Origin: a virus
Lineage: Duplodnaviria; Caudoviricetes
DNA: 64,000 bases
IMG/VR virus record: IMGVR_UViG_3300011116_001007
Reading direction: 5' to 3' (one strand)
Shown: positions 26,460 through 59,762 of the stretch, one piece after another
How the letters are laid out: each line of letters opens with the position of its first letter
Numbering within the stretch: the stretch's first letter is position 1
Notes under the pieces: model-generated
What the model was told of the DNA's origin: nothing
The model's database searches: none
What the model saw: only the letters and a program-made list of their open reading frames with translations
Position numbers and translations under genes: made by a program

Positions 26460-27577
26460 CAGCAGTTCCACTTCCTCAGTGCCAGCGCCTTGCGTGTGGG
26501 TTTGCCATTGGGTTTCTTCATTGGACCGTCCACACCACTCATTCTAGCGCAGAAACTCTTGCGACGTTTGGCTGCTTTTGATCCAGGCTTGAGTTTTGAA
26601 GGCTTGGTGGTCACTGCCATCTGCAAATGACTGCCGGGATGTTCTCTGCGATAGCTGGCAACACCTTTGCGATTCAATCCGCCCTTGGCGCTCTTGCCTG
26701 CTTTGCGTCGCCAAGCAGCAGTTTCGCGAACAATCTGTTCATCTGTCACTGTGTCAAATGCATCTTCGGTAAGTCCACGTTCGGCCATGGCCTGTTCAAA
26801 ATCATCAAATATCTCATGAGCTTCCTCCAAGCTGCAGATGCTTTCTGCAGGATTGATGCTTCTGTAACCCAGTGAGTATTGTTCTACTTCTTCGGGATGT
26901 CGTGCTTGCTTGTCTTGCATGGTTTTCAACTGTGTGCGTGGGTTGAGTGTTTTAACTTTTCTGTTGGGATTTTGTTTGACATCACGGCGAGCATCCGCCA
27001 CACCGGCCGCATGCCAATGATTGTTTTCCGCCACACCTTGCTCTTCCACTCGGCCAGCATTGTGTGCTTTCCATGCTGTGGCAAAAGCAATAGATTTTTC
27101 TTGAGGAGTCAGCTTGCCATCCCGGGCATAACCCTGTTTAATGTGTTTGACCATGCGTTCGGCTTTGGCGCCTGGAGGGGCAACTTCAGCCACATCGCGC
27201 ATCAAATGATTGGCATCGCCGGACTTTTTCCATGCATCCCACATGGCTCGGCCGGCTGGCAATTGATTTCTGCTTGGCACAATGGTGTTGCCCAGGGCTC
27301 GCACATAGGCATAGATGTTACGTGCTAGACCTTGACCTTGATATTCAGGACGGAAACTGGTGATCAAGGATACCACGCCTGCTTTGCTTGGTTTGAATTT
27401 GGCAAGACCTGCTTGTTGAAAGTTGTCATCCAGCACTTTGACTGTGAGCACTGGCTTGCCGTATTCTTCTTCCACCGTGGCCCGATATGTCAACCCGTCA
27501 AAAATTTGTGTGTCATTAAATGCTGGATTAAAACAATCTGGATTGATTGCTTCTGTAATAAATTCTTTTGATCTCAT
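26459..27577 (-). CDS. CTS-motif modular protein: GNAT-like domain plus basic C-terminal (DUF6321-like) module
   Basis: MRSKEFITE; PEYQGQGLARNIY..QLPAGRAMW GNAT-like motif; AAWRRKAGK..GGLN..RRKSFCARM..KWNC. Confidence 0.6.
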   Translation of the reverse strand: MRSKEFITEAINPDCFNPAFNDTQIFDGLTYRATVEEEYGKPVLTVKVLDDNFQQAGLAKFKPSKAGVVSLITSFRPEYQGQGLARNIYAYVRALGNTIVPSRNQLPAGRAMWDAWKKSGDANHLMRDVAEVAPPGAKAERMVKHIKQGYARDGKLTPQEKSIAFATAWKAHNAGRVEEQGVAENNHWHAAGVADARRDVKQNPNRKVKTLNPRTQLKTMQDKQARHPEEVEQYSLGYRSINPAESICSLEEAHEIFDDFEQAMAERGLTEDAFDTVTDEQIVRETAAWRRKAGKSAKGGLNRKGVASYRREHPGSHLQMAVTTKPSKLKPGSKAAKRRKSFCARMSGVDGPMKKPNGKPTRKALALRKWNC

Positions 27578-27876
27578 TAAAATATCCTCAACGAAACTTC
27601 GTCACTGCCCACACCAACGATGACACCTGGACCGTCAATCACACGAAAATTGGTCACACGTATGCGCCCTGCTTCTCGGTCCACTGTTTCGTAACGTATG
27701 GGATATGTGCCCGTGGGTGCCATGATCTGATGTGTTTCTTCAAGATAAGTGTCAGTCCAGATCCAATTGCGCTCAGTGAACAATTCGTCATTGACGTATG
27801 CTCGATATCGCAGATTAGCACCCGGATACCGTTTGGCACTGACATCAACAGTAAATTGTATGAATTTAGGCTCCAT
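27577..27876 (-). CDS. Hypothetical late protein
   Basis: 99 aa; TAAATA at 27881-27886 upstream. Confidence 0.55.
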   Translation of the reverse strand: MEPKFIQFTVDVSAKRYPGANLRYRAYVNDELFTERNWIWTDTYLEETHQIMAPTGTYPIRYETVDREAGRIRVTNFRVIDGPGVIVGVGSDEVSLRIF

Positions 27877-27880
27877 AATT

Positions 27881-27908
27881 TATTTAGCAAAATATGCACC
27901 TATAAATA
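27881..27908. promoter_or_regulatory. Divergent T4-type late promoters (TAAATA minus 27881-27886; TATAAATA plus 27901-27908)
   Basis: Exact T4 late consensus TATAAATA 5 nt before ATG 27914; the same hexamer precedes many other ORFs (e.g. 35093, 36174, 37669, 38874, 43309, 44266, 45068, 46051, 52133, 60875, 60986, 61806). Confidence 0.7.
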
Positions 27909-27913
27909 TCTAT

Positions 27914-28954
27914 ATGCTTAAATTAGTTGACGTGCGGCAGATTCAAATTGAACTCACCACAAGATGCAACGCTCGTTGCCCCATGTGCATGCGAAACTAT
28001 CGAGGTATTGACTACAATTCGGGATATCCTGTGTGCGAACTCGGCCTTGCTGATTTCAAAAAAATACTCACACCTGCAATATTGACTGGAATCATGAGAT
28101 CAGACCCGCCAGTGAATGGAAGAGTTCCGATCAACTACAACTTTCAAGGCATCAATTTCAATGGCAATCTTGGCGATTTTTCCAACGCAAAAGATGGTGC
28201 AGAGATTGTGGAGTATCTGGTAGAGCACGGAGTTAATGTTCGTATCAATACCAATGGCAGTACCAGAACTCCAGATTGGTGGGCAAGATTGGCCCGTCCC
28301 GGAGTCTCAATAGGATTTGCATTAGATGGCCTGGCTGACACCCATCATCTGTACAGGCAGGACACAGACTGGCACAAAATAATAGCAAATGCCCAGGCGT
28401 TTATCAACGCAGGTGGGCATGCAGAATGGAGATTTGCGCCATTTGATCACAATCGCCATCAACAAGATGCATGCGAGAAATTATCTCGCGTGATGGGATT
28501 TGCTAGATTTGAAAACATATATGATGGCCGTGATCGCGGGCCAGTGTTCAATCGAGATCAAACATTCAGCCATCATATCGGCGAACCTGTTGGTCCAGCT
28601 CCGGATGTGCAGCCCATGTTGGAAAGTCATATCACATGGTATGATTCACGCACATTCCGCAGCGAAAAAGATTCCACCACATTGAATTTGCAATGCACAC
28701 ACAAAATGAACAGAGAGATATACATAGCAGCAGATGGATCTGTGTATCCTTGTTGCTATTTGGGGTTCTATCCAAAAACGATGAATTATCCAGGCAACAA
28801 AGAACTGGCACCCATGGTGCAACAAAACAATGCATTGGAACACACACTGGAGCATTGCCTGGAATGGTTTGAATCCATTGAACAGTCCTGGGCCAAAGAC
28901 AGTATCAGTCAAGGCCGAACATATCAATGCATAACTACATGTAATCGTGTATGA
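27914..28954 (+). CDS. Radical SAM/SPASM-twitch protein
   Basis: CNARCPMC, NGNLGD, NTNGS, YIAADGSVYPCCY; start moved to ATG 27914. Confidence 0.82.
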   Translation: MLKLVDVRQIQIELTTRCNARCPMCMRNYRGIDYNSGYPVCELGLADFKKILTPAILTGIMRSDPPVNGRVPINYNFQGINFNGNLGDFSNAKDGAEIVEYLVEHGVNVRINTNGSTRTPDWWARLARPGVSIGFALDGLADTHHLYRQDTDWHKIIANAQAFINAGGHAEWRFAPFDHNRHQQDACEKLSRVMGFARFENIYDGRDRGPVFNRDQTFSHHIGEPVGPAPDVQPMLESHITWYDSRTFRSEKDSTTLNLQCTHKMNREIYIAADGSVYPCCYLGFYPKTMNYPGNKELAPMVQQNNALEHTLEHCLEWFESIEQSWAKDSISQGRTYQCITTCNRV

Positions 28955-28990
28955 ATGCATGGCCTTATCATATCAATTTAGGAACATATT

Positions 28991-33071: not shown

Positions 33072-33099
33072 TATGTATGCCGCGTGGATTGAGTGGTTT

Positions 33100-35085
33100 T
33101 TATTTTTTGCGGATGCCAGCTAAATTTTGCATGCGATTGATATCTTCGTTAAAATGCTGTGATTGCATTTTGGCCAGTTCGGCTGCAGGGACATTCTTTT
33201 GAAATGTTGTTGTGGGTGTACCATTCACATCCTGCTTGTGCATGTAATCTCCGGTGCCGGTCGCAGGATTTGTCGCTATAGTAACATCGCTGTAGTTACG
33301 GTTGGCCTGACCGTTTTTGGCTGCGGTGGTATCACGTGAGATTGTGCTTATGTTTGTGTTTAGATCTGGGCGAGTAGGCGGCGTTGCCTGTTTGTAAGAA
33401 TTGGTTGGTGCATGGTATTGCATCGTGGAGCCATCCTGCATGGGCATGGTTGCACTGCCCCATTTGAATCCGTCATCCATGGTGTCACCCGTGTCAGTTT
33501 CTTTTACTGAAGTTTTCCTTGGCTGACTGGCAGGTGTTCCGGCATTATATCCACCTTGACGATATCGATTCGCAATACCTGACAAGGTATCTCCTTTGTC
33601 AACCACAGCAAAAGTACCATTGGGCAGTTTGATTTGCTGCCCAGGATAGATACGATCAGGATTGGCTATTTTATTTGCTTGAGCTATGTCTTGCCACAAT
33701 GGTGCTGTTGTTTTTGATGCGGTTGTACCACCGGCCGCCGGTGCATTTTGTTTTGCTGCCCATGCTCTAGCACGATCTATTGTGGCTTGATCAATGCGAC
33801 CTTTACTTCCACCAGTGATTTCGCCATTATCACCGGCACCGTTGCCCATGGTCATGCTCATACGCACTGGCTGTGTTTTACCAGTGGATGATACTGCGTT
33901 GCCTGCTGGCACTGAGTTAGCTGCTGGTTCAGACTGGCGGTACGCTGGATTTATTACATATTGCCACGTAGTGCCGGCAGGCAGTCTGTTAGGATTGCTT
34001 GGGTCAGCTGCTGCACCAGATGCACCATCTCCAGCTTTTTTGCTATACTCGCCATTGACTTGCCCTGCTGGCAATATCACACTTGGCGGTGGGTATTCTG
34101 TGTTACTATTACTGCCGCCTGTGTTGGGTACTGAAAATTCTTCGCCATTGGCACCCTTATAAACGGTTGGCGCCGCAAATGGGTCTGGTAGATTGTTCAT
34201 CTTTGTTTGCCAACGGTTGATGTGGTTTCTTACGGCTGCTTCTTCTTCACTGTCCAGCGGTTTTATTTCCTGACCAGGCTTGAGGTTTTTGCCAAAGCGG
34301 TCCCAATTTTTCATGATATCCGGGCCATCATCGGTGTTGTTGGACATCGACCCAGCAACATCAGCAGGAGAAGGATAAGCATCGGCGGTTTCCATGGGCT
34401 GCATCATGTTATCATAATTGGCATTGGGGTTGGCTGTTGCTGGGCGTGTGTCTAGTCTAGGAGTTTCTTTGCCAGTTCCTGTCGCTGGCCTGCTGTCTAA
34501 GTAATTGGGTTTTTGTGTCAACGGTGTTGTGTGCATTTGGGGCGTTTCATTGCCTGTTCCTGTTGCCACTGGATGATTGATATAATCAGTTTCTGCTCGA
34601 CCTACCAGCTTTGTGAGTGCGTTGAGATTTTTTGTAAGTTCAGGATTTTGAAATGCTTTCATGCCTTTGTTAAAAGTTCCAGACACATCCACATCGCCTT
34701 TGGGATTCAAAGCCATTGAATTTTTAACTGCGGCCGGATCAGGAGCAGCCATGCCGCGTTCAGCAGCAGTTGAATACATGTTCTTGACATAATCTGTAGT
34801 GGGCATTGATCCTAGACTGCCAGGTGGCAACTCATTGGCGTCTTCCGCTAAATTCTGCTGACCATACATGTCAAGAATTTGATCAACGTAAAAACTATAA
34901 AAGCCGCGGCGGCCGTTGTATTCTCTGTCTCCCAACACTCGCTTTAGTGCCAGCACAGCGTCACTCACTGTTGGACCTTGCATCACTCGTAATGCGTCAG
35001 TGACAAGTGAGTCAACTCTTTGCGAGTTTTCTGTCACATTGCGTGCAGATCTTTTGGGGTTGGTAAAAAAATCGTTGATGATCAT
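33100..35085 (-). CDS. Modular LysM-containing probable virion protein
   Basis: IANPDRIYPGQQIKLP..VVDKGDTLSGIA; low-complexity linkers; C-terminal RMQNLAGI; late promoter upstream. Confidence 0.6.
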   Translation of the reverse strand: MIINDFFTNPKRSARNVTENSQRVDSLVTDALRVMQGPTVSDAVLALKRVLGDREYNGRRGFYSFYVDQILDMYGQQNLAEDANELPPGSLGSMPTTDYVKNMYSTAAERGMAAPDPAAVKNSMALNPKGDVDVSGTFNKGMKAFQNPELTKNLNALTKLVGRAETDYINHPVATGTGNETPQMHTTPLTQKPNYLDSRPATGTGKETPRLDTRPATANPNANYDNMMQPMETADAYPSPADVAGSMSNNTDDGPDIMKNWDRFGKNLKPGQEIKPLDSEEEAAVRNHINRWQTKMNNLPDPFAAPTVYKGANGEEFSVPNTGGSNSNTEYPPPSVILPAGQVNGEYSKKAGDGASGAAADPSNPNRLPAGTTWQYVINPAYRQSEPAANSVPAGNAVSSTGKTQPVRMSMTMGNGAGDNGEITGGSKGRIDQATIDRARAWAAKQNAPAAGGTTASKTTAPLWQDIAQANKIANPDRIYPGQQIKLPNGTFAVVDKGDTLSGIANRYRQGGYNAGTPASQPRKTSVKETDTGDTMDDGFKWGSATMPMQDGSTMQYHAPTNSYKQATPPTRPDLNTNISTISRDTTAAKNGQANRNYSDVTIATNPATGTGDYMHKQDVNGTPTTTFQKNVPAAELAKMQSQHFNEDINRMQNLAGIRKK

Positions 35086-38911: not shown

Positions 38912-41900
38912 TTACTGGGCTTGACGCACACTGTAGTCAGCAGGGTTGAGTGTTATGCCAGTGTCGTTGCTGGTTTGTTGTACCCATTGACGACCTTCTG
39001 CCCAGGCCGCAGCTTGTGTGGCAGCATCCAACGGGAACATGCTCACTCCATCACTACGTCGATACACTTCCCACTGGGGCGCGGCTGCTGGCTGCGATGT
39101 ATACTGTGCAACATCTGGCTCAATGTCTTGCACTCCAGGAATTGGAGTAGGTGTCCGACGGTTAGCAGCATGTTCTGCATCAGCGGCCATGCTGGCTGCT
39201 GCTATTGCATTATAGCGTTGACGAGCTAGATCCAAGGTGCTGCCTGGGATGGGTGCTCGACGAACACCAAACGCTGCTGTGGCCTGCTGCGAATTTAATG
39301 TATGCGGACCCATGCTTCTATATTGATTCAAGAATTCTAAAGCTGCTGCATCATTGGCCGCTTGGAATGTTTCTAAGGGGCTGCTGTCCTCTCGGTCGTA
39401 AATCTCGTAAGTGACTGTGTCTGCATCAGCGGGTACTTCAGCAGGCACAGGAACCACTTCAAACGGTCCGCGAGCAGCCATATTAAGTGGCGGTAGCCAA
39501 TGGGCTTGCACCCATGCTAGTGCTGCTGCGTTGGCATCTGCTTGCACATTTCTATTCCAGAAAGTATGCACAACATCTCCGTCGTCGGCAACAATGTTCC
39601 ATTGCACACTACCGGCTTCGGGTGCTGATGCAGGTGCTGCAAACTGCGTGGTATCCACAATCATGTAATCAGCAGCATTTGCATTTTCTCGAGCAGCCCA
39701 GGCCGACATCACAGAACGAAGTTGGGCTTGGCTATAGCCGTCCCCTAGGGTAAATCTAAACAAGTAGTCTGGTGCAGGTCCTGATGTTCCGCTGCCGTAG
39801 CTGTAGACTCGAGGATCATCACGTCGCACTATGGCCAGTTGACCGTTGGGGTCATTGGGTCTGCCACGGCCTTGGGGATGTGATGCTGTGGTACTGGCTC
39901 CTGCTGCGGGCTCATCCAGTCTGGTCACAGTCAGTGCATCATCATGAAATCTCCAGTTGGGCTGCTGTTTTATGGCCTGCTTCTTGGCATCTACAGGGTC
40001 AGCGGCAATCACTTCTACCACGCCGCCACCCAATTCAGGCTTCAATGACACTCTCCATCGATGACCATTCACAATGTCCTCACCAGACTTCTTGGCCTTG
40101 CGGTCGGCTTGTGCTTGCCGCACAAAACTCTTTAGCGCAGCAGCAGGTAGTTCGCCTGCGGCATACTTGGCAAATACAGCCAGGGGATCTTTTTCATCTT
40201 TGGGTGCCAATATCTTGTATAGTTTTTTCAGATACTCTTGTCTATACGCTTCAGGATCTAATGCAGCACTCATGGCCACTGTGAATCTCATGAGAGTGTT
40301 TTCAATCTTGTCAAAGTTGTCGTCCAACCAGTCTCCGCCGGGGCTACGAAACTCAATGTGCCCATCCTTGGTGTTGATACTGGTGTATTTTTCTGTTGAG
40401 CCCGAGTGTATGGCTTTACTAGCCAAAGCACCCATGTGCCCTTTCATCTTGTCCAACAAATATTTTGCTTCATAAGGCCGTTGACGCACATGATCACGCA
40501 CTTTGCCCATGGCACTCTTGGCGTAGGAGTTACCTGCCCGCCCAAACTGCTCTAACACATATTCGTCGCCCATCAGCAGGGCCAGCTTTACAAAATCCAG
40601 TCGATTCTGGCTGTAATTGGGCACTGAGATATTGATGTGTAGCCCAGTAGAATCATTGGTGTAGCAGCCCATGCGATTGGCCCAGGCTTTGACCTTGTTC
40701 AAGTCACTCATGATGTCATCTATAGGCAATGGTGGGCTCACAAACTCCAGGCCTGAATCTTGTGGGTCATCCGGTTCCAAACTGCCATCGGGTTCTACCA
40801 CATAGAAGTTTTTGCCCGGCGCAGGACGCTCCACACTGCTGGAATGATACCCTGAAGATGCCTTTACAGGACGACCCACCGCCCGACTGAAATCGTCTGC
40901 TATATCTTCAACGCTGGTGCCACCAGCAAGACTGCTGGTATAGTGTGGCCAATGTATAATTCCATTATAACGATGATAGATATCACTCATGTGGCCCAGG
41001 CCAGAGTCACCCAACCATTCTTCAAAATTGTCATTTTCGTAGAACTCATCGCGGGACTGTTCCAATGCATCATCATAGAAAGGTTGTAGTTGTTCAGTAA
41101 CAATCATGTCCGCAGCCAGTTGATATTCTTTTTTACCAAGCTCGTCCTCTGATTCTAGATCCAACAACTCTCTGATGCTATCTTCGTCAACATTTTCTCG
41201 GATGTAATCGTAGATGAATGTTTTAGCATCTGAATCCCAGCGAGTATCAAACTGTTCCACTTGCCAGTCGCCGTAATCATCCAGCATGCGATCAACCAAC
41301 TCCTGGGCATTTCTGCGACCGTTGTAGTCACCATCATAGAAAAAATCTTGAATATCTCTAGGGCTGCTGGCACGTTCATCAGAATCAAAGTCGGGTTCTA
41401 GTTCATCATCTTCGGATGAAGTGTTGGGCACAATCATTTCAAATTCCATACCAGCCAGGGCACCTGTCTTGGCTGCTTCTCGACGCAGATTCTTGCCACC
41501 CATGTTGATTTCAAACAGATCCTGATCTTCAAACAATCTCAATTCTTGTCGCAGGCTTGCTACCAATTTATTTTCAGCCACATTGTAGGTAGGGTCAGTT
41601 TTTTGACGCTTCATGCCTTTGGGCTGGTTAGGATCAACAGGATCAATGTCAGTGGTTGATAACCCTAATTTTTCTAACTTATTGATGTACTTGTGTTCAG
41701 TATCTTCGTCACCAAAGCTCACAATAGTGCTGGGTGGCCCTTTGCCAAATTCGCTGGGATCAGCACGATCCAGATTGGCAATGTGCTTGCCCAACTTGTA
41801 CCAGTCATACACGTCACTCACATCTACTCGTACTGTGCCTTTGGGCATGGTGGGTTTGAATTCAGGCCCCAATGGCTCATTGAGGTCACGATACTTGCCC

Positions 41901-43300
41901 TGACCCTGCGACGGTTGCGGCATAGAACTTTCACGTAGATTCACAGACTTGATCAACAACTTGGGCTCTCCGTTGGGCCCTGTTTGCAATGCCATCTTGT
42001 TGGCTTCTCGGCCTGTTTGTCCCGGACGCACATCCACACTCAAGGCCATGGCATACTGTGGCATGGCCGCTTCCTTTTTGTTCTTGGGAATGTATCCTGA
42101 CGCACCTTCGCCCAGGGATTCTGCGGCAAAGTATTCAGGATGTGACGCAGCAAAATCTCGCATGATGATGCCAGCTCTGGCATTGGCATCATTTTCGTAT
42201 TCACTGCCAGTTTCTCCAGCATCCAGTGGCAGGCCACCTTGCGTCTGATGTTGATCACAATGCACCAGTTCATGTGCTATGGTGCGGAACACATCCAGGA
42301 TATGGCGATTGGGCAAGCTCACATTGAGAGTGTTTGATTCTGGCTCATAACGTCCAAAGCTGTGATTGCCTTCACTCCATTCAGGATCTGTGTGTATGAC
42401 TATTTTGGGAGCAGGATCAATGCCCAGTTCCGTGACCACATGCTGGATAAAATCATTCACTGCCTGATTGTCCTCGTCGCCTTTTTCACTCAAGAACATT
42501 CGGGTACTGGCACTGACCCCATCTGGAGTTATTGTGACATCTTCTGCGATGCGATGGCCAAACCCATAGGTCACACGACCTTTTTCTCTGTTCTTTTCCA
42601 CTAGACTCATGGCATGATCTTGTGCTGCCACGTGAGCATCTTTCAGCAGTCGGATGCAGCCTTGATCGCGCAGCACTTTGAACGTGATGTTTTCGCAACC
42701 AAATTCCCCATGCTGTTCCAGCCCAATTTGGCGCATGGCTTTGATCTTGTTCCACAGGGTGGACATCATATCAGCATTGCCAGACTCAACAGCAGCGTGT
42801 ATTCTAGCGTCTAGATCAGCTGCTTTGTCACGCACACATGAGTCATCAATCTGTGCTCGTCGGCGGCGCGGCACTTGTATCCATTTGCCATCCTTGACTG
42901 AATAAATGCCCTGACTCACATGCGGCTGGCCTGCAGGTTGCACATACAATTCCACATCAGCACCGCCAATGGTCAAATTGTGTTCGTCGTTGTATTGGTA
43001 TTTTTTAGCGTTGAACAGTTCCTGATACACAGGATCATCAGGCATGTCCACTATCAAATGTAGATCAATGTCGCTGTGGTCAGTATAGTTGTATGCTGCA
43101 TTTGACCCCGACAGTGTGATGTCTTGCACTCGGAGATTGTCCACTCCCAAGAATTCACGGAAGTCTTCTGCAATTGCCAGCAGTTTGTCACGAACATCTG
43201 GCAGCAGATGTTCATTTGAACCCCACAACCGACGGTTAAGTCGATTATGGTATTTTACAGTGTCGCTCAGGCGGAATTGATCTAGTTCATTGAAGTTCAT
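38912..43300 (-). CDS. 1462-aa polyvalent protein: Pol-beta-type nucleotidyltransferase, HExxH zincin, amidoligase (COOH-NH2 ligase), C-terminal repeats
   Basis: GSNAAYNYTDHSDIDLH; AHELVH; GMEFEM..EPDGSL..GLEFVSPP..STGLHINIS..IEFRSPGG. Confidence 0.75.
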   Translation of the reverse strand: MNFNELDQFRLSDTVKYHNRLNRRLWGSNEHLLPDVRDKLLAIAEDFREFLGVDNLRVQDITLSGSNAAYNYTDHSDIDLHLIVDMPDDPVYQELFNAKKYQYNDEHNLTIGGADVELYVQPAGQPHVSQGIYSVKDGKWIQVPRRRRAQIDDSCVRDKAADLDARIHAAVESGNADMMSTLWNKIKAMRQIGLEQHGEFGCENITFKVLRDQGCIRLLKDAHVAAQDHAMSLVEKNREKGRVTYGFGHRIAEDVTITPDGVSASTRMFLSEKGDEDNQAVNDFIQHVVTELGIDPAPKIVIHTDPEWSEGNHSFGRYEPESNTLNVSLPNRHILDVFRTIAHELVHCDQHQTQGGLPLDAGETGSEYENDANARAGIIMRDFAASHPEYFAAESLGEGASGYIPKNKKEAAMPQYAMALSVDVRPGQTGREANKMALQTGPNGEPKLLIKSVNLRESSMPQPSQGQGKYRDLNEPLGPEFKPTMPKGTVRVDVSDVYDWYKLGKHIANLDRADPSEFGKGPPSTIVSFGDEDTEHKYINKLEKLGLSTTDIDPVDPNQPKGMKRQKTDPTYNVAENKLVASLRQELRLFEDQDLFEINMGGKNLRREAAKTGALAGMEFEMIVPNTSSEDDELEPDFDSDERASSPRDIQDFFYDGDYNGRRNAQELVDRMLDDYGDWQVEQFDTRWDSDAKTFIYDYIRENVDEDSIRELLDLESEDELGKKEYQLAADMIVTEQLQPFYDDALEQSRDEFYENDNFEEWLGDSGLGHMSDIYHRYNGIIHWPHYTSSLAGGTSVEDIADDFSRAVGRPVKASSGYHSSSVERPAPGKNFYVVEPDGSLEPDDPQDSGLEFVSPPLPIDDIMSDLNKVKAWANRMGCYTNDSTGLHINISVPNYSQNRLDFVKLALLMGDEYVLEQFGRAGNSYAKSAMGKVRDHVRQRPYEAKYLLDKMKGHMGALASKAIHSGSTEKYTSINTKDGHIEFRSPGGDWLDDNFDKIENTLMRFTVAMSAALDPEAYRQEYLKKLYKILAPKDEKDPLAVFAKYAAGELPAAALKSFVRQAQADRKAKKSGEDIVNGHRWRVSLKPELGGGVVEVIAADPVDAKKQAIKQQPNWRFHDDALTVTRLDEPAAGASTTASHPQGRGRPNDPNGQLAIVRRDDPRVYSYGSGTSGPAPDYLFRFTLGDGYSQAQLRSVMSAWAARENANAADYMIVDTTQFAAPASAPEAGSVQWNIVADDGDVVHTFWNRNVQADANAAALAWVQAHWLPPLNMAARGPFEVVPVPAEVPADADTVTYEIYDREDSSPLETFQAANDAAALEFLNQYRSMGPHTLNSQQATAAFGVRRAPIPGSTLDLARQRYNAIAAASMAADAEHAANRRTPTPIPGVQDIEPDVAQYTSQPAAAPQWEVYRRSDGVSMFPLDAATQAAAWAEGRQWVQQTSNDTGITLNPADYSVRQAQ

Positions 43301-46049: not shown

Positions 46050-46691
46050 TTATTTAGCCTGTATTGGCACAGTCTTGCGAACAATTCCCGGCAGAACGAG
46101 ATTCAACATCAGCGCATCATTGATGTCATGATGATCGATAAAATTCCAGTCATTGGTGTAAAAATGCTTGTAATGAAACATCCGCCCGTCATCGCCAATC
46201 AATCGAGACTGCAAGCCCGGCGTGATCCTAAAATAGTCCGGGCGGTTGGCAAAAAATTGTATAAATCTATCGCGCTCAATGTCGTTGAAATATTTGCCTC
46301 TGAGATAAGTTCTGTATTGATGTTGTGTTTTTTCAAGCACAACCACATCCTTTGCTCGATCAACCACACATTGATTGTACTTGGCTGTTCTTGTTATGTA
46401 GGACAAGGCCGCCAAGTCTTTTAACAGTGTTAAATTATTGGTGTAAACATATACCCAACTGCCGTAGATGATAGATTTATGTGCATCTTTGTCGGCTGCC
46501 AACAGCATGGCCACTTCGCCCACATCAGAATACTCGGGCATACGCTCCACAAAGTCTTTTATATCTTTTGTATTGGAATATTTGAATAATCTACGCCATC
46601 TGCCAACTTCTTCCAATCTAAAATCTATGGCATACTCGTACTGATCATAGTACAAACTGCCTCGGGACACGTATTTGAAGTCAATCATCAA
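46050..46691 (-). CDS. Hypothetical protein
   Basis: 213 aa, coupled to clpA stop. Confidence 0.55.
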   Translation of the reverse strand: MMIDFKYVSRGSLYYDQYEYAIDFRLEEVGRWRRLFKYSNTKDIKDFVERMPEYSDVGEVAMLLAADKDAHKSIIYGSWVYVYTNNLTLLKDLAALSYITRTAKYNQCVVDRAKDVVVLEKTQHQYRTYLRGKYFNDIERDRFIQFFANRPDYFRITPGLQSRLIGDDGRMFHYKHFYTNDWNFIDHHDINDALMLNLVLPGIVRKTVPIQAK

Positions 46692-48949
46692 GTGCCTGCT
46701 GCTGGGAATCTAATGATGCCATCTACATCTACCACAGGAATCACATGTGCTTGAGTTTCAAAATGCACTTGATCATCCACTAGTGTTGCAGTGATATCAC
46801 AATCGGTCAGTCGATCAAACAGGATCCGCTTGCTCAATGGCACACGGATCAACTGATCAATCTTGCGGCTTAGGGGTCTTGCACCCATTTTGTTATCATA
46901 GCCTTTTTCAGCCAGGTAATCAATCACGGGCTCTGTCAACACCAAGCGTATGCGTTTGCTTTCCAAACTGGTCTTGAGCTCATCCACAAATTTAAGCACA
47001 ATCTTTTTAATGGCCAAAGTATCCAGTTTCACAAACTTACACACTTGATCAATACGATTACGCATTTCGGGCTTGAAGAACTCTTTCATGGCACGGTCTT
47101 CTTCTCCGGTCTTTTCTTGTGAGCCAAAGCCGATGGCATTGCTTTCGCTGTCCCTGGAACCCAGATTTGAAGTCATGATAATGATGCAGTTCTTCACATT
47201 GGCCTTTTTGCCATTGCTGCTGGTCAACACACCTTCGTCCAGCATCTGCAGCAAGATGTTGCTGACATCTGGATGTGCCTTTTCAATTTCGTCAAACAAG
47301 ATCACAGAAAAGGGATTCTTGCTGATGTCGGCGATCAACTTGCCGCCGCCTATGTTGCCGTCCTCAAATCCCACATAGCCTGGAGGTGCACCAATCAAGC
47401 CTGACACACTGTGACGTTCTTGATACTCACTCATGTCGTATTTCAACAATGGCATGTCCAGGTGCTGGCTCAACAGTCTGGCCAATTCAGTTTTGCCTGT
47501 GCCAGTGGGCCCCGTAAACAAGAAACTGGCCATGGGCCGTCGTTCGTTGCCAATACCTGAGAAGTTGATGTACACACGATCCAACACAGCATCCACCGCA
47601 GCGTCTTGCCCGTAGAGATGTTGTTTGATATTGCTTTCAAGATCCACAATCTTGGCTGATCGCTCATTCTGCAATCGATCTGTGGGCACACCTGTCACAC
47701 GGGCCACTTGTGCTTCAATCAATTCTTTAGTGATGGTCGCGGTGCCTGCATCTCGAACACGTTCTCGGGCACAGGCTGCATCCAACAGATCAATACACTT
47801 GTCAGGATTCTTTCGATCGTGAATGTATCGATTGCCCAGTTCCACAGCAGTGGTCATTGCCGCTGTGTCGATCATGACATTGTGGAATGCTTCCAGTCTG
47901 GGTGAGAGCCCGATCAGGATCTTTTCAGTGGTCGCAGTGTCCGGTTCGTCAATCGACAACCTGTAGAAACGGCGCATGAGAGCACGATCCTTTTCGAAGC
48001 TCTCGTAAAATTCTTCCCAGGTGGTACTGGCCACAACCTTGAGTGTGCCACGTGTGATGGCTGGTTTCAGCATGTTGGCAAAGTCTAGACTGCTTCCCGA
48101 ACTGCCTGCACCTGCACCTTTCATGGTGTGTGCTTCGTCCACAAACAAGATGCAGTTCTTTTTGGCTTCCAAGGCTGCCAGTACCACCTTGAGTTTTTCT
48201 TCAAACTCGCCGCGGTATTTGCTTCCGGCCAGCAAACTACCAATTTCCAAACTCCATACTTCGTAGCCTTTGAGGAACTCAGGCACACGCCCTGCATTGA
48301 TTTCCTGTGCTAGTCCTTCCACAATGCAGGTCTTGCCCACACCAGGATCGCCTACCATGAGCACGTTGGCTTTGAAACGACGTGCCAGCACAGCAATCAT
48401 TTCTTCCAGTTCAGTTGCACGACCAATCAGCGGTTCCAATTGATTGGCAGCGGCCTGTGCAGTGAGACTGGTACAGTATTCGGTCAGTACTTCGTCTGCT
48501 TGATTGGATGTCATTTTGCTGTCTACCTGTGTGTGATTTTTCTGATAGAATTCCACAAACTCAGACTTCTTCATCCCGTACTTGAGCAAAAAGTAGTGTG
48601 CATGGCTGTTGGTTTCGGCCATGATGCTGAGATACACATCCAACAGGTTCATGGCTCTGCGGCCAGTGAACATGACCTGCACGTTGGCTCGATTGAACAC
48701 ACGTTCCAGGCTTTGTGTTTTTTTGGGCTGTACATCACCTGTCTTGACCAGGTTCATCAGACTGTTCAAGTATGCATCCAGCTCTTGATCCAGCATGTCT
48801 ATTTCCACGCCAAACTGTTCAACCAGTCTACGGAAGTGTCCTTGGCGCAGCATGGCCAATAACAAGTGTTCGGTCATCACATATTCGTGACTTTTTTCTT
48901 TAGCTATTTTTACAGCGTTGTCAACAATGCTTTCGATTTCGTGTGCCAT
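46688..48949 (-). CDS. clpA: ClpA-like AAA+ unfoldase
   Basis: Clp-N domain, GDPGVGKT, FVDEAH, GPTGTGKT, FDEIEKAHP, IGF ClpP-docking loop (NAIGFG). Confidence 0.9.
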   Translation of the reverse strand: MAHEIESIVDNAVKIAKEKSHEYVMTEHLLLAMLRQGHFRRLVEQFGVEIDMLDQELDAYLNSLMNLVKTGDVQPKKTQSLERVFNRANVQVMFTGRRAMNLLDVYLSIMAETNSHAHYFLLKYGMKKSEFVEFYQKNHTQVDSKMTSNQADEVLTEYCTSLTAQAAANQLEPLIGRATELEEMIAVLARRFKANVLMVGDPGVGKTCIVEGLAQEINAGRVPEFLKGYEVWSLEIGSLLAGSKYRGEFEEKLKVVLAALEAKKNCILFVDEAHTMKGAGAGSSGSSLDFANMLKPAITRGTLKVVASTTWEEFYESFEKDRALMRRFYRLSIDEPDTATTEKILIGLSPRLEAFHNVMIDTAAMTTAVELGNRYIHDRKNPDKCIDLLDAACARERVRDAGTATITKELIEAQVARVTGVPTDRLQNERSAKIVDLESNIKQHLYGQDAAVDAVLDRVYINFSGIGNERRPMASFLFTGPTGTGKTELARLLSQHLDMPLLKYDMSEYQERHSVSGLIGAPPGYVGFEDGNIGGGKLIADISKNPFSVILFDEIEKAHPDVSNILLQMLDEGVLTSSNGKKANVKNCIIIMTSNLGSRDSESNAIGFGSQEKTGEEDRAMKEFFKPEMRNRIDQVCKFVKLDTLAIKKIVLKFVDELKTSLESKRIRLVLTEPVIDYLAEKGYDNKMGARPLSRKIDQLIRVPLSKRILFDRLTDCDITATLVDDQVHFETQAHVIPVVDVDGIIRFPAAGT

Positions 48950-49021: not shown

Positions 49022-49807
49022 TTATTGGTGTTGTTGGATGGCATCTAACAATGCATCGGGAATGGCATCAGGAATTCGAGCCTGCATGCGTACCAAAATG
49101 TCGCCAGGCGGTCCATCTTTGCTGACCAAGCCCTGACCTTTCAATCGCATGATCGAACCTGGTTGTGTGCGCGGTGGCACAGTCATGCTCAGTGTACTGC
49201 CAGTGGGTGTGTGTATTTCAACATCTGAGCCCAGGATCAGTTTCCAAATGTCCACTTTGCGTTCGCAATGCAGGTTGAATCCATCTCTATGCCAAACTGG
49301 ATCAGGATTGATTCTAAACTGCACAATCAGATCCATACCGCCAGGTGCTATGCCACCGTATTGCACATTGTCGCCGTCTTGAATGGATCGAGGAATGTCA
49401 ATCTGCACAGTGGTAGTGCCCACAGCAGTGCTCACGCTCACAGTTTTTGCACCACCGCGTATGGCATCGGCTAGCGATATCCACAAGTTCATGGTGACCT
49501 GACGGCGCTGTTGCTGTTGTTGGGCATGCATCTGCTGGCCAAACATTTGGCTGAATATGTTGTTGAGATCAAACGGATTGCCCGGAAATCCACCACCAAA
49601 ATGCTGTGTGTGTTGCTGCGGATTGTTGTAGGCTGCTCGCTTTTGATCGTCGCTGAGTGTTTCGTAAGCAGCTTGGATTTGTTGGAATTTGGCAGTGTCA
49701 CCACCTTTGTCAGGATGATGCTGACTGGCCAACCGACGATAGGCCTTTTTTATGTCATCAGCAGATGCTGTGCGCGGTACACCCAGGGTGTCATAATAAT
49801 CACTCAT
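49022..49807 (-). CDS. DnaJ/CbpA-like co-chaperone (no zinc finger)
   Basis: [23 protein letters not shown] domain, G/F region, DnaJ-C. Confidence 0.9.
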
Positions 49808-53009: not shown

Positions 53010-53058
53010 GTTATTTCTATTTGTTTGAAGTGTGGTGTGCTATTATTTACCGAGCATG

Positions 53059-54571: not shown

Positions 54572-54574
54572 AAC

Positions 54575-55234: not shown

Positions 55235-55848
55235 ATCACTGTTACCCTTACGTCTGACATTGCGTAATTTTGTTTATATTCTGCTGGCGGCGGTTGTAGA
55301 TTTAGCATGTTGCACAGCATGATATTGTCCAATGGATTGCGCCCGGGATATTTCATTGCAGCATTGACTATGCCGCTATTCTGTTGTTTGATGATGGTGG
55401 CCATTGTTTTTAAATTTTTGTAGTGGCCGTGATACAGTGGATAAGTGATGTCAAAATGCCCGCACTTGACCCACCAGCCCAAACACGCATCGTCGGGTCG
55501 ATGTACCAGTACAACAGGACAATCAGGCCAACATGCCCGTAAAAAATCAATGTTGTTGGCAAATATATGACTTTTGATAATACGCACACCAGTACCAGTG
55601 AATGCACTGTTGAATATATCCTCCAGTGCATCTTTACTCAGTGCAAACAAGTCAGGAGGCAAATCAAACTCCATGCCAGGATCAAAGTATGCACCCAAGT
55701 GCATTAACTCCGTCTGCCCACTGGCATCGTGATGATAAGTCCTGGCATCACTGTAATCACTGTGATCCAGGCTGGGGCTGTAATAGATGTTCTTAACTAC
55801 GCTGCTCCATTTTGAGCCAGGAGCGCCGGCTACAAAGATATATTTCAT
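55231..55848 (-). CDS. P-loop/sulfotransferase-like protein
   Basis: FVAGAPGSKWS, IIKSH, VLVHRP. Confidence 0.5.
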   Translation of the reverse strand: MKYIFVAGAPGSKWSSVVKNIYYSPSLDHSDYSDARTYHHDASGQTELMHLGAYFDPGMEFDLPPDLFALSKDALEDIFNSAFTGTGVRIIKSHIFANNIDFLRACWPDCPVVLVHRPDDACLGWWVKCGHFDITYPLYHGHYKNLKTMATIIKQQNSGIVNAAMKYPGRNPLDNIMLCNMLNLQPPPAEYKQNYAMSDVRVTVI

Positions 55849-56804
55849 TCAGGTTTGAATCGTTGTGCTATGGGTTGCCATTCTTTGCGTAATTTAATCA
55901 TACTGTTATTTAATCCCTCAGCTGTGTGCTCTTTGGGATTTGTGAACATCATGTTTTCATCAAACTTTTGTTTGGCTTCTCGACTGTTGATGGCAGGTAT
56001 GAAGTTGGCGCGATACCAGTCTTGTATGTCTTTTGGCGTGCCTTTTGGCAGTATAAGATTCCAACAACCATAAATGTTTAGTCCCGGTGCGTAATCTTTC
56101 ATCAATGGTGTTTTTTCCAATCCGTGAATAGGTACTTCACTTGCTAGTCCAATCAACTTCAATTTGCCCGCCGGTACATAAGGATATCCCACTGCCACCG
56201 GAGTCACTCCAAACTCCACATGCCCGCCCATTACATCTAATAGTGCTTGTGCCGGACCTTTGTACATCACAGTTTCTACTCGATCTCCTGACACATTCAA
56301 TTTGCTGGTCAAGTATTCTACTGCTAGTTTGTGTCCGCCGCCACCAATGGCAAAATTGATAGGTCTTTGTTTGGATCGAATTTCATTTATCAATTCTTCA
56401 GGTGTGTTTACTCGGCTACTGGGATGAGCCCAGAACGCCAGCGGGCTTTTGGCAATGTTAGCAATTGGTTCAAATTCAAAAATATTGTATTTGATCAGCT
56501 GTGGATACCATATTTCGGCTGTGACCCATTGACTGTTACAAGCAGGCACCGACACAGTGTGCCCGTCATTGGCCACTGTGTTGAAATAATTAGTGGCGAG
56601 ATTACCGTCAGCACCTGGCCGATAGTCAGATACAAATTTTGCGCCGGTGTTGCGTTCCACGATATCTGCTGCAATTTTAAAACTTATTTCATTGCCCGCA
56701 CCCGGACCGTTTGGATATATCACAGTAATTTGTTTAGTGGGTTCCCAGGCCAATGCCATTGCTGGTAACAAAATCAAAACAGCCAGTATTTTTTTGATGT
56801 GCAT
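55845..56804 (-). CDS. Tripartite tricarboxylate transporter substrate-binding protein (Bug/TctC)
   Basis: Signal peptide, PGAG, RPGADG, YKGPAQALLDVMGGHV, GKLKLIG. Confidence 0.85.
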   Translation of the reverse strand: MHIKKILAVLILLPAMALAWEPTKQITVIYPNGPGAGNEISFKIAADIVERNTGAKFVSDYRPGADGNLATNYFNTVANDGHTVSVPACNSQWVTAEIWYPQLIKYNIFEFEPIANIAKSPLAFWAHPSSRVNTPEELINEIRSKQRPINFAIGGGGHKLAVEYLTSKLNVSGDRVETVMYKGPAQALLDVMGGHVEFGVTPVAVGYPYVPAGKLKLIGLASEVPIHGLEKTPLMKDYAPGLNIYGCWNLILPKGTPKDIQDWYRANFIPAINSREAKQKFDENMMFTNPKEHTAEGLNNSMIKLRKEWQPIAQRFKPE

Positions 56805-56855
56805 AACTTCTCCTTAAATATGTTTGAAATCAAAGTTATTTACCAAAAATTTTAT

Positions 56856-57590
56856 ATGAACACAAAAATTTTCTCCTTAATCACAAAAAATTTGCAGAGT
56901 GCGTTTATTTTGCCCAAGTATAGCAAAATTTCTATTACTGAACATACAGTGGTAGATCAGTTGCCCTGGACACCAGCACGCTACAGCAAGTTCAAAGATG
57001 CTGTGGAAGCTGAACTGGGCTTGAGTTGTGAATATCGCGGCACCTTGAAAGAAATTGTAGCAGACTTGTCAGAACGTTACACACACAGATTCTTTGCTGA
57101 AATTTGGCGGCCGCGCACAGGCGAATATGATCATTCAGGCTGGGCCTTGGTAGACGAAATCAATCAGTTAAATCCACAAAAGGTCCTGGACGTGGGCTGT
57201 GGATATCATCCGTTTAAGGGTCGCATACACAACATCGTCGGCATTGATCCGTACAACGATGCAGCTGATTATGAAGTGGATATCCTGGACTATCGAGTCA
57301 AACCCGAAAGTCACGACGTGATCATTGCACTGGGTTCGATCAACTTCAACTCCAAGGACGAAATTGAACAGCGGTTTGCACACTGCGTGAGTTTGTTAAA
57401 GCCCGGTGGTCGATTCTTTTTGCGGGCCAATCCTGGACTGCTGCACAAAACAGGTCCTTATGTGGATATATTTCCTTGGACATTCGAAATAGTAAATGAA
57501 TTTGCCGAAAAGTACAATCTAAGTCTAGATACCTTTAAGAAAGAACCCACCGAACTGGGGCGTCTTTATTTTGTGTATACCAAAAAGTAA
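56856..57590 (+). CDS. Class I SAM methyltransferase with small helical (ACP-like?) N-terminal domain
   Basis: VLDVGCG, GIDPY, LLKPGG; start at ATG 56856. Confidence 0.7.
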   Translation: MNTKIFSLITKNLQSAFILPKYSKISITEHTVVDQLPWTPARYSKFKDAVEAELGLSCEYRGTLKEIVADLSERYTHRFFAEIWRPRTGEYDHSGWALVDEINQLNPQKVLDVGCGYHPFKGRIHNIVGIDPYNDAADYEVDILDYRVKPESHDVIIALGSINFNSKDEIEQRFAHCVSLLKPGGRFFLRANPGLLHKTGPYVDIFPWTFEIVNEFAEKYNLSLDTFKKEPTELGRLYFVYTKK

Positions 57591-57592
57591 CG

Positions 57593-58228
57593 TTATCTGC
57601 CGGCCGCAGCCAACGCTGCACCGCGGTTGAAACTGTCAGACCAGCTGGCAGCATGAACGTTGCCGCGGGCCTTGGACCAACGATATCCGGCTCTGTGTCC
57701 CGAACAATCTTTGGTGCAAGGGCTTCCTAAGAAACTCAATTCATCCAGTTGCTGTGTGGGCTCCAAGAATGTGGCAGCAAACTGATGGCACAGTTCATGC
57801 AGTTTGCGATTTCTTGTGCATTCGGTGTGAAATCGCTTGTGGCCGACTCGTTGTGTGGGATCTTGATAGCCGCAGTACACTTTGTGTATGCCGTGTTCAT
57901 GCAAGAGATCGGTACAAGGAGCGCCGTCACGTTCGTCCATGTGTTCGCTGCAAGGACTCAGCGTGGTGATCACTATGCTGCCCCTGGGCACAGCGCCAAA
58001 CTGCTGAGTGTAAGCATTGATAGCAGCACGTTCAGCATGCACACGATGACCAGTGTCACTGGGATGATTGATGCTGGCTATGCATTGATTGTCAGGATCC
58101 AGCACCGCAGCAGCCACCATGCCCAGATCAGGATTCTGTTGTTGGCCGCGAATGACCATTTCGCATAACTGTGCAAGTATGCGATCTAGTTTGTCGTGGT
58201 CGTGTATTTGGAAATCTTCAGCTCTCAT
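57593..58228 (-). CDS. Zn-dependent deaminase (RibD/CDA-like) with extra C-terminal Cys module
   Basis: HAE and TLSPC-x11-C; then LDELSFLGSPCTKDCSGHRAGY. Confidence 0.75.
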   Translation of the reverse strand: MRAEDFQIHDHDKLDRILAQLCEMVIRGQQQNPDLGMVAAAVLDPDNQCIASINHPSDTGHRVHAERAAINAYTQQFGAVPRGSIVITTLSPCSEHMDERDGAPCTDLLHEHGIHKVYCGYQDPTQRVGHKRFHTECTRNRKLHELCHQFAATFLEPTQQLDELSFLGSPCTKDCSGHRAGYRWSKARGNVHAASWSDSFNRGAALAAAGR

Positions 58229-58392
58229 TGCATTCGAAATGACATACTGATAGGGATCATTCTGGTGGATCTACGCACTTTGCGTTGTTGACGTTCAGAT
58301 GTTTGCGGCGTTTCAGGACCTGCTGGTGCATCAAGTCGGATGGGCGCACCGGGCAGTGGACGTATAGGGCGGCCATTGGCAGTGCGTTTCAT
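58225..58392 (-). CDS. Possible small basic protein (55 aa)
   Basis: Fills the gap with ATGA overlaps on both sides; no recognisable motif. Confidence 0.35.
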   Translation of the reverse strand: MKRTANGRPIRPLPGAPIRLDAPAGPETPQTSERQQRKVRRSTRMIPISMSFRMQ

Positions 58393-59762
58393 CGTGGTTG
58401 CACCGCTGTGGGCATGTGACGATACTGACGTGGACCATTAGGTGCGGCTGCAGGCGGCGTTGTGACACCGGCCAGTCGACGCATGGCCGCAAGTGAATCT
58501 TCTGCTAATCCTGCTTGTCTCTCGTCTGTGGTGTCGCCGGTGACCTGATATGTTTTTCCATGTACTACAAATGTGTCTTGGTCGGCTTTGATAGCATTCA
58601 TTCTAGCATCAGTGAATACATTGGATTCCGCCATGCCCTGTTGTCCGTATGCAGGATCTTTGTATTTGTCCAGGGCTCGAGGTATATCACGGTTAACTAT
58701 TCGCGCGGCTTTTTTGTTATTGGTTGTGGCCAATCCAGCAGGGCCTTTTATTCTAGCGGGTTGTGCTCGAACGTAATTTCTTAATGTGTCTTTTGAAAGT
58801 TCGTCCAGTTGATCTTCATCCACTTGCTCTGCAGCTTTTCTGAATCCTTTGTTGGGAATCCATCCTGCAATGGGCTTGCACTTGCAACTATCACCAGGGC
58901 ACTTGCAGTTGATCATGCCACATTGGCGACAGCGGTTTTCTTCGCTTTCCTCTATGCTTTCGTTGGGCACACAGTTGCGAACTTGCCCACCATTTTTGCC
59001 TGTTTTGGTGCCTTCGGCATGCTTGCCTGGCCAGCAACGAGTGTAGCCATTGCTGTCTTTCTCGCCCTTTTTAATTTCGTTTAGACTGCCGTGTGTTTGA
59101 CACATGCCACAGTCTTCACACACCATTTCCATTTCAATTGATTCATTGTGCTTCTGTTTACCGGCACAGTGCGCCTTTTGGCTGAAACCTTTGGGGTGGC
59201 TGCAATTGATTGAATTCTTGTACTTTTGACTCCACTCCTCCGCCACACCTTTGACTGGTTTGATGTCAATGATGTCTAGATCATATTCGTTGGCCAATTT
59301 CCATGCTGCTTCAAAGTCAGGAGCGTCAATAGTCATCTTGCCACCTTCACCATGTGATCCACTATGAATCACCAGCCACTTTCGCATGCCTTCCGCCACA
59401 CTTTGTTTGTTGATATCTTTTTGACGCAGACTGTTTTTCATTGTGTCAATCTTCTTGCCTGCACCCACTTGGTCAGCATTGGCATCTTTAGCAGCCTGGT
59501 TGTAGGCACGTTTTCGTTTCTTGAGTTCTGCGTTCTCCGCCACACCTTGCTTGTTTAGATCTTTCAATTTAGCTAGTTTGGCATCATTATCAAACTGTTT
59601 TATGGTAGCAGCATTTATGCCTTTAAAACGTTTGTGACCGCGAGCAAAATTGCCCGCTGCGTCTGCTGCTGCGGCGTCGGCACCTGCGTCAGTTTTGTAT
59701 TTTGTTAATTTTTCGTTGGCTTTTAATAGCCGTTCTTTTTCATCAAATTCTCGTAGTCTCAT
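58389..59762 (-). CDS. CTS-motif multi-module polyprotein
   Basis: MRLREF; short modules separated by GVAE/SVAE/GMAE/GLAE; several Cys-rich modules; C-terminal MRRLAGV. Confidence 0.65.
   Translation of the reverse strand: MRLREFDEKERLLKANEKLTKYKTDAGADAAAADAAGNFARGHKRFKGINAATIKQFDNDAKLAKLKDLNKQGVAENAELKKRKRAYNQAAKDANADQVGAGKKIDTMKNSLRQKDINKQSVAEGMRKWLVIHSGSHGEGGKMTIDAPDFEAAWKLANEYDLDIIDIKPVKGVAEEWSQKYKNSINCSHPKGFSQKAHCAGKQKHNESIEMEMVCEDCGMCQTHGSLNEIKKGEKDSNGYTRCWPGKHAEGTKTGKNGGQVRNCVPNESIEESEENRCRQCGMINCKCPGDSCKCKPIAGWIPNKGFRKAAEQVDEDQLDELSKDTLRNYVRAQPARIKGPAGLATTNNKKAARIVNRDIPRALDKYKDPAYGQQGMAESNVFTDARMNAIKADQDTFVVHGKTYQVTGDTTDERQAGLAEDSLAAMRRLAGVTTPPAAAPNGPRQYRHMPTAVQPR

Follow-up and report, generated by a model that had tools for sequence, protein, structure and literature searches.

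In a 64,000-nucleotide (nt) stretch of the viral record IMGVR_UViG_3300011116_001007 from the IMG/VR database (Duplodnaviria; Caudoviricetes; hereafter, the window), several genes encode proteins whose unrelated modules are joined by a short Q-G-V-A-E-like linker. The DNA of this linker is conserved at silent positions over hundreds of non-homologous junctions in many uncultured phages, and always in the same reading frame. On balance, and with moderate confidence, we favor the joint interpretation that these are "beads-on-a-string" proteins, whose modules would be joined by general recombination at the linker, loaded into the prohead, and cut after the Glu of V-A-E. Among T4-like phages, the internal proteins that are ejected serve as front-line weapons against host defenses and change rapidly from phage to phage, and the way in which they are acquired is poorly understood.

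An original prediction made from the sequence of the window had listed six 15-mers as in-frame junctions between unrelated modules and had pointed out that all of them use GCG for alanine. Indeed, the six copies are present on the minus strand, in frame and spread over three genes, four of them in the gene for the 457-amino-acid (aa) protein P0002 (59535-59549, 59391-59405, 59238-59252, and 58626-58640) and one each in those for proteins P0001 (27026-27040) and P0003 (34843-34857). All six junctions use GCG, which is otherwise rare among the alanine codons in the open reading frames (ORFs) of the window (108 of 1556, 7%). When all 35 [VILMF]-A-E sites in these ORFs were considered, GCG was found at 6/6 junctions and at 0/29 other sites. 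The 10-mer GTGTGGCGGA occurs five times in the window compared with 0.16 expected copies, a count that none of 100 shuffled sequences reached, and the 13-mer AAGGTGTGGCGGA, with up to two mismatches allowed, occurs five times compared with 1.1 expected. The modules between the junctions were also predicted to be unrelated, and this agrees with the fact that relatives match P0002 module by module, with match ends at residues 72-76, 124, and 173-175.

The relatives comprise 80 IMG/VR loci obtained by a protein search with P0002, whose matches are modular and end at junction residues; L-numbered names below denote related loci outside the window, and larger comparisons took in the window and 204 loci. 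At the 75 unique GVAE sites of the window and the 80 loci, glycine is encoded by GGT in 92%, valine by GTG in 73%, alanine by GCG in 79%, and glutamate by GAA in 76% of cases, compared with background shares of 40%, 25%, 8%, and 80%, respectively, so that GAA at these sites corresponds to background. Among 276 other [VILM]-A-E sites in the same dataset, GCG accounts for 7%. With silent codon shares at junctions far above background, the idea that conservation acts on the DNA as well as on the protein is borne out. The sequence logo displays a sharp block of approximately 13-17 nt, (C/G/A)AA GGT GTG GCG GA(A/G) G(GC), between random flanks, and the protein consensus of the linker is (Q/E/K)-G-V-A-E-G. 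The amino acid variants of this consensus (Q/E/K, G/S, and V/M) all lie one base from a single DNA consensus, as Q, E, and K are encoded by xAA, Ser by AGT, and Met by ATG. As a control, 44 unique capsid-targeting-like N-termini of the form M-x-A-x-E-F-h-x-E (h, hydrophobic), which are equally conserved as peptides, were found to encode their alanine by GCA (24), GCT (10), GCC (9), and GCG (1). Because this control shows background alanine codons, silent-site conservation is specific to the internal linker and is not general to protease or targeting sites.

The reading frame of the motif is equally constant. In the window and the 80 loci, the 10-mer has 78 unique occurrences, 75 of which are open in the V-A-E frame. 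An exact 15-mer scan of IMG/VR revealed at least 167 copies in at least 120 stretches, 94% of them in the Q-G-V-A-E frame of open frames of at least 100 aa. Among the stretches listed with the 15-mer, 33 of 120 hold two to four copies, whereas a synonymous control 15-mer, likewise scanned in IMG/VR (at least 120 stretches), appeared twice in none of the stretches listed. A Chi-like or other frame-independent DNA signal is unlikely because essentially every copy lies in one coding frame. In addition, copies within one genome tend to share their silent variants (p = 0.003): none of the five copies in L018 uses GCG (GCA at four of the five), and all four copies in L073 use GAG. Such a correlation fits homogenization between copies or a co-evolving recognition factor. 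When silent-site identity of the motif was compared with that of homologous flanks, the trend favored the motif, with only 36 ungapped pairs and thus too weakly to be used.

Silent positions might instead be kept by a function in mRNA or translation, recombination being incidental; for example, a ribosome pause (rare GCG, Shine-Dalgarno-like AGGUG) could aid module folding. Several features would suit such a function, since GCG is the rarest alanine codon (7-8%), AGGTG lies within the motif, the motif falls exactly at domain boundaries, and in one relative (L057) the motif and a stop codon are followed after 4 nt by a new ORF, which is a possible position for a ribosome-binding site. However, pausing does not call for a single invariant 13-mer, GGT is the commonest glycine codon and yet is raised from 40% to 92%, and no start codon consistently follows the motif. 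Moreover, local RNA structure does not exceed shuffled controls, a two-tetrad G-quadruplex being marginal (-1.4 kcal/mol), and the 17-nt direct repeats that flank an insertion or deletion (indel) described below would be left unexplained. We consider this explanation very unlikely.

Exchange of modules at the motif is visible in the positions at which homology begins and ends. Across the window and the 204 loci, DNA matches with an identity of 85% or more have 832 internal ends, and 175 of these fall no farther than 5 nt from a motif, compared with 11 for random positions (a 16-fold excess). For protein matches, 186 of 568 ends fall no farther than eight residues from a motif, compared with 42 for random positions. 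One flank was seen elsewhere beside a different partner in 109 of 125 junctions, and only two of the 125 were classed as stable, so that a comparison of shuffled with stable junctions says nothing about loss of the consensus.

Two individual events could be followed at base level. L007 and L010 are approximately 98% identical over two modules, and L007 additionally contains a zinc-ribbon-like module of 162 nt between the copies of a perfect 17-nt direct repeat, AAGGTGTGGCGGAAGGC; homology between the two loci stops at the next motif. The second event separates the window gene for P0002 from its ortholog in L326, a locus of a sediment metagenome: between the motifs at 59535-59549 and 59238-59252, two modules of the window are replaced in L326 by one unrelated module, whereas the remainder of the two genes is approximately 96% identical. 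The same replacement is visible in contigs aligned to the window as a joint of 59251 to 59560, and other river samples yielded separate high-depth contigs with module 2 only, broken off at both motif edges. Thus, breakpoints of module gain, loss, and replacement map to the motif, as the match-end enrichment and the two events indicate, and the proposed cassette exchange at a short conserved DNA site is supported. Free synonymous variation, a lack of GCG enrichment at junctions, and breakpoints away from the motif had been named beforehand as findings that would speak against the proposal, and none of the three was obtained. Assembly chimeras were considered as a cause of the shuffling and rejected, because the 13-17-nt repeat is shorter than common assembler k-mers and the same architectures recur in independent IMG/VR, ENA, and Logan assemblies.

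The copies might also be alike without any present function at the DNA level, simply because the junctions are young and were copied recently together with a neighboring module. Partner turnover is indeed very high, and variants off the consensus are mostly single transitions (GTA in 17 and GCA in 14 of the 75 sites), as recent copying would predict. However, the flanks of most junctions are unrelated, and hence the motif was not inherited with both of its neighbors; the same 13-mer recurs in hundreds of contexts on contigs from many samples, and modules have diverged to 45-60% amino acid identity while the motif has not. Recent copying alone is therefore an account that we regard as doubtful and assign a small probability.

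With regard to the mechanism of exchange, the favored interpretation invokes the general recombination and replication machinery of the phage (UvsX/RecA-like), which would join or delete modules in frame at motif copies, the 13-17-nt copies acting as short homologies. Junctions with an intact motif would recombine and spread, and silent positions would stay uniform, whether or not selection contributes. All four complete motif-bearing relatives encode a RecA/UvsX-like protein. An integron-like array had originally been proposed, and this part is not supported: tyrosine and serine recombinases are missing from the four complete relatives, the motif lacks dyad symmetry, and the sites lie in three separate genes rather than in one array. 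Phage_integrase (PF00589) and Resolvase (PF00239) gave no match in four relatives that are 99-100% complete and one partial relative, whereas control genomes scored; in the window, a Pfam scan of 30 of the larger ORFs at 24-64 kb (about ten smaller ORFs unscanned) revealed no recombinase or homing nuclease. Because a RecA/UvsX-like gene is present and integrase and resolvase are absent in the four complete relatives, recombination or annealing at short homology is a simpler explanation than an integron.

In a dedicated site-specific system, or "in-frame integron", a phage recombinase or nuclease would recognize the 13-mer and insert, excise, or exchange cassettes. The very uniform DNA core and the precise cassette boundaries would be expected of such a system, and the concerted silent variants within a genome (such as GCA at four of five sites in L018) could mean a co-evolving recognition factor. 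Apart from the lack of a tyrosine or serine recombinase in the four complete relatives and of any recombinase match in 30 of the larger window ORFs, the motif has no inverted-repeat architecture, complete relatives of 345-525 kb hold only zero to six motif copies, and breakpoints are sometimes offset from the motif; a system of this kind seems quite improbable to us. More broadly, the 13-mer might be a dedicated recombination signal, read by a phage factor or serving as a hotspot of the machinery, in which case one sequence would be both DNA joint and protease site in a programmed in-frame exchange of cassettes for injected proteins. This we hold to be unlikely.

The structure of the motif was examined as well. 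The 13-mer is not self-complementary and has no dyad symmetry. In 75-nt windows around five of the window junctions, folding energies were within the shuffled range, no attC-like structure was found, and the flanks had no conserved sequence. Readings of the motif as a hairpin, a G-quadruplex, or an attC-like fold were unsupported.

Several known systems resemble the present one at the DNA level. In T-even phages, tail-fiber adhesins recombine between conserved "His-box" motifs. Integrons are alike in that exchangeable units of cargo form an array with a short site recurring at the unit boundaries; they differ in that they need the tyrosine recombinase IntI, structured attC sites, and whole promoterless gene cassettes, none of which were found here. 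A parallel may also be drawn with the PeSL-mediated shuffling of T4-type phages (Arbiol et al. 2010, PMC2839356; Comeau et al. 2014, PMC4122927), where short conserved motifs among unrelated sequences likewise serve as exchange points, at which homologous recombination by the phage itself gives rise to indels and replacements in T4-like genomes. PeSLs, however, are found between genes, comprise a promoter and a stem-loop within some tens of bases, and serve to swap entire genes, whereas the motif described here has 13-17 nt, is intragenic, keeps one reading frame, encodes a linker, and swaps modules within one polypeptide. An intergenic early promoter and stem-loop terminator of the PeSL type were not found at the swap boundaries, at which the motif is intragenic, in frame, and without a stem-loop. 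The motif thus works like a PeSL as an exchange point and is not a PeSL.

At the protein level, the favored interpretation proposes that the modular proteins would be directed into the prohead by an N-terminal peptide like the capsid-targeting peptide of T4 and/or by the ...RLAG tail that their C-termini have in common with the scaffold protein, that a prohead protease of the gp21 type would then cut after the Glu of V-A-E, and that cutting would free the modules as individual internal proteins, which are probably ejected. Peptidase_S77 (the T4 gp21 family) was detected in 7 of 10 related contigs (4/5 and 3/5), including contigs picked by the DNA motif alone. In L084 it is adjoined by a gp23-like capsid gene and by a gene for a gp22-like scaffold (267-1355, minus strand) with five h-A-E sites and a C-terminal ...RLAGLN; P0002 and P0003 end in similar ...RLAG and ...NLAGI tails. 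The T4 capsid-targeting sequence (CTS) is MKTYQEFIAE, ending in I-A-E. A short targeting-like peptide ending in hydrophobic-x-Glu is present at the N-terminus of P0001 (MRSKEFITE), and 139 distinct ORFs in the window and L001-L204 begin with the T4 CTS-like pattern M-(K/R)-x-x-(E/D)-(F/I/L)-x-x-E, most commonly as M-R-A-x-E-F-(I/L/V)-x-E, with freely varying codons. These N-termini suggest that this clade of phages packages an unusually high number of proteins in the head. The WSQKYK module directly follows the N-terminal ...ITE in several relatives and an internal ...VAE in the window and L007, and some ORFs end exactly in ...QGVAE, as at L057:2900-2935, where QGVAE is followed by TAA and then by the next ATG. 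Cleavage after V-A-E by a gp21-type prohead protease is plausible in view of S77 in the relatives, the CTS-like N-termini, the shared RLAG tails, the placement of WSQKYK after ITE or VAE, and the ORFs that end in QGVAE.

The C-terminal motif h-x-x-h-K/R-R/N-L-A-G-h ends P0002 (58392-58499, minus strand), P0003 (33103-33150, minus strand), and the gp22-like scaffold of L084, and it also begins the ORF that follows the QGVAE stop in L057; it may be a second signal, binding the prohead core. In the latter locus, the gene boundary coincides exactly with the motif, and GGCGGA is placed as a ribosome-binding site would be.

The linker might instead be a flexible spacer in intact multidomain proteins that are uncleaved and perhaps unpackaged, its likeness to a protease site being coincidental. 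In its favor, cleavage and location in the virion are read from sequence, and the AlphaFold model is uninformative. Against it, besides the CTS-like N-termini and the tail common to the scaffold protein, stand the module that follows either a CTS or a linker, the ORFs that end exactly in ...QGVAE, the annotation of DUF6321 homologs as "structural protein" in the two cyanophages S-E7 and S-P4, and the agreement of V-A-E with the hydrophobic-x-Glu pattern, as in the T4 LIE-9 site, which fits the gp21 cleavage logo (PMC9026906). We give the spacer explanation little credence.

The favored processing by a prohead protease has several precedents. T4 internal proteins carry a 10-residue N-terminal targeting peptide that is removed by gp21 after Glu (PMC9026906, PMC5694885), and Asp at the cleavage position blocks processing (PMC9026906). 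The T4 internal proteins IPI-III and Alt (PMC3012670, PMC9026906, PMC5694885) are likewise diverse and fast-changing cargo with a short targeting/cleavage peptide ending in hydrophobic-x-Glu, are presumed to be ejected, and are processed by gp21, a protease of the type detected here in relatives. However, T4 cargo consists of separate genes with one N-terminal CTS each, whereas the modules here are chained in one ORF with internal V-A-E sites, and conservation at silent positions is seen for the internal site but not for the N-terminal one. Polyvalent proteins (Iyer et al. 2017, PMC5512222) likewise contain many disparate domains per polypeptide and are predicted to be packaged, processed, and injected; two to fifteen disparate domains in one phage polypeptide are typical of them, and P0002 has six segments. 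Recombinational variability has been raised for cassette-like small ORFs neighboring some of them (PMC5512222). They differ in having mostly large enzymatic domains and zincin-like or assemblin-like peptidases, and a conserved linker or nucleotide junction motif is not mentioned (PMC5512222). In the giant phages phiKZ and SPN3US (PMC5694885, PMC10052503), head and ejection proteins likewise undergo cleavage at several internal positions, in each case after the Glu of a three-residue motif, but by proteases of the S80 family with the motifs S/A/G-x-E and A-x-E, and neither cassette shuffling nor DNA-level conservation of the sites has been reported. At the protein level, the system would be virion cargo of the polyvalent/CTS type (PMC5512222, PMC3012670), and at the DNA level it is an instance of the known motif-mediated shuffling of T4-like phages. 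What is new is the combination of a 13-17-nt in-frame linker, its silent conservation over hundreds of unrelated junctions, breakpoints at the linker, and a translation that matches a protease site. Literature searches found no description of the motif.

Several points weigh against the interpretation that modules are joined by general recombination at the linker and released by a prohead protease. Some breakpoints lie a few codons off the motif, and the left side of the replacement between the window and L326 diverges 11 nt upstream of it. The same module boundary is also found beside non-consensus linkers (...LGE and ...LDE), and selection for intact domains alone would put many breakpoints at linkers. 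The uniformity of silent sites fits selection on nucleotides and a by-product of recombinational spread alike. A length of 13-17 nt is short for efficient homologous recombination, and we know of no measurement at such a length in such phages. In one relative, moreover, the major capsid protein seems to rely on a different h-x-E site.

If the favored interpretation is true, joint and processing site in one would amount to a simple rule, by which a module pasted between two copies of the motif would automatically be expressed, packaged, released, and delivered. It would also provide a clear natural case of silent-site conservation that results from recombination and not from coding or RNA structure. 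In practice, the motif is a cheap marker with which metagenome scans may pick hundreds of candidate injected modules for functional screens, and the linker could serve to load several foreign proteins into T4-type capsids.

Among the three host genes, that for P0002 (58389-59762, minus strand) is the richest in junctions. The protein begins with the targeting-like peptide MRLREFDEKE and has six segments: the N-terminal module (residues 1-71) and the C-terminal tail (residues 422-457, ...RRLAGV...) are both conserved, and four cassettes lie between them; relatives have up to eight segments (L043, 1233 aa), and the modules are unrelated. Junction 1 (59535-59549, minus strand; residues 72-76) is CAAGGTGTGGCGGAG, encoding Q-G-V-A-E within KQGVAE; it forms the left edge of the L326 cassette replacement and adjoins the contig joint at 59560. 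Junction 2 (59391-59405, minus strand; residues 120-124) is CAAAGTGTGGCGGAA, encoding Q-S-V-A-E within KQSVAE, close to which the module-2-only contigs from river metagenomes stop (59386-59388). Junction 3 (59238-59252, minus strand; residues 171-175) is AAAGGTGTGGCGGAG, encoding K-G-V-A-E; it forms the right edge of the L326 replacement, with the contig joint at 59251, and the matches of many relatives begin at residue 173-175. Junction 4 (58626-58640, minus strand; residues 375-379) is the motif variant CAGGGCATGGCGGAA, encoding Q-G-M-A-E, and the module that follows it is missing in the orthologs P0005 and P0010. Ahead of the tail lies a junction-like Q-A-G-L-A-E (58500-58517, minus strand; residues 416-421), which uses GCA and is off the DNA consensus; in all orthologs, the boundary of the conserved tail coincides with this position. 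The orthologs P0004, P0005, P0009, P0010, and P0018 keep both ends of the protein, the constant N-terminal module and C-terminal tail, and have unrelated, variable interior modules. P0002 has no Pfam match, and an Atlas search returned only low-scoring viral DUF clusters. An AlphaFold2 model of P0002 from a six-row alignment (mean predicted local distance difference test score, pLDDT, of 43.5) was confident only for module 1 and uninformative for the linkers.

P0001 (26459-27577, minus strand; 372 aa) starts with the capsid-targeting-like MRSKEFITE, which precedes an acetyltransferase-like module assigned by eye and without a Pfam match; next come a small helical module and the junction, and DUF6321 forms the C-terminal domain. 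Its junction (27026-27040, minus strand; residues 180-184) is CAAGGTGTGGCGGAA, encoding Q-G-V-A-E in frame within EQGVAE. A degenerate seventh copy of the motif, absent from the original list, lies 11 codons past this junction (26994-27006, minus strand): CCGGTGTGGCGGA(T), encoding A-G-V-A-D, retains the DNA core, with Glu changed to Asp, the residue by which processing is blocked in T4 (PMC9026906), and may be a decayed junction that remains from a lost cassette. The modules of P0001 recur without the linker in T4-like cyanophage proteins. In the cultured T4-like Prochlorococcus phage P-HM2 (L325, 106111-107004), a gene between the small and large terminase genes encodes homologs of the APxGAK helical module of P0001 and of DUF6321, with other linkers and no QGVAE.

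P0003 (33100-35085, minus strand; 661 aa) contains an N-terminal module of 76 residues together with a LysM domain and ends in the tail ...NLAGIRKK; a terminator and TAAATA lie upstream of its ATG. Its diverged junction (34843-34857, minus strand), CAGAATTTAGCGGAA, encodes Q-N-L-A-E and closes a module whose relatives end in QQG(V/L/M)AE; homologous 62-aa modules were found in L010, L018, L029, and L033. Recognizable activities among the modules are few, being limited to LysM, DUF6321, and the acetyltransferase-like motif seen by eye.

The source of the window is a large uncultured freshwater phage with a T4-like core. This rests on four observations: a nucleotide search with two window genes against 50,697 deposited phage genomes gave zero matches; the exact 457-aa P0002 sequence occurs on three recorded contigs, the longest of 308,552 base pairs; near-identical window DNA is present in river and viral-fraction metagenomes; and T4-like genes are encoded. 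A search of IMG/VR for an exact 40-mer from the window gave no match. The window has a G+C content of 44.7%, and its genes lie almost all on the minus strand. It encodes a T4-type family-B DNA polymerase, a ClpB-like ATPase, DnaJ, and a Dps-like ferritin, as well as radical-SAM enzymes, glycosyltransferases, PhoH, and a dCMP deaminase. In protein searches, cultured relatives (T4-like cyanophages and pelagiphages) had single modules only, of the WSQKYK type or DUF6321, and the linker was absent from them.

A full-length ClpB-like double-AAA ATPase (46688-48949, minus strand) and an adjoining DnaJ with J and C-terminal domains (49022-49807, minus strand) form a chaperone pair. The ferritin/Dps-like protein (25356-25877, minus strand) is encoded downstream of P0001 in the same gene string, with one ORF between them. 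An amidoligase_2 domain lies midway (residues 794-990) in a 1462-aa protein (38912-43300, minus strand), whose N-terminal region matches a PHROG of unknown function. Finally, a homolog of TctC-type periplasmic binding proteins (tripartite tricarboxylate transporter receptor) is encoded at 55845-56804 (minus strand); this family, which is expanded in Betaproteobacteria, may hint at the host.

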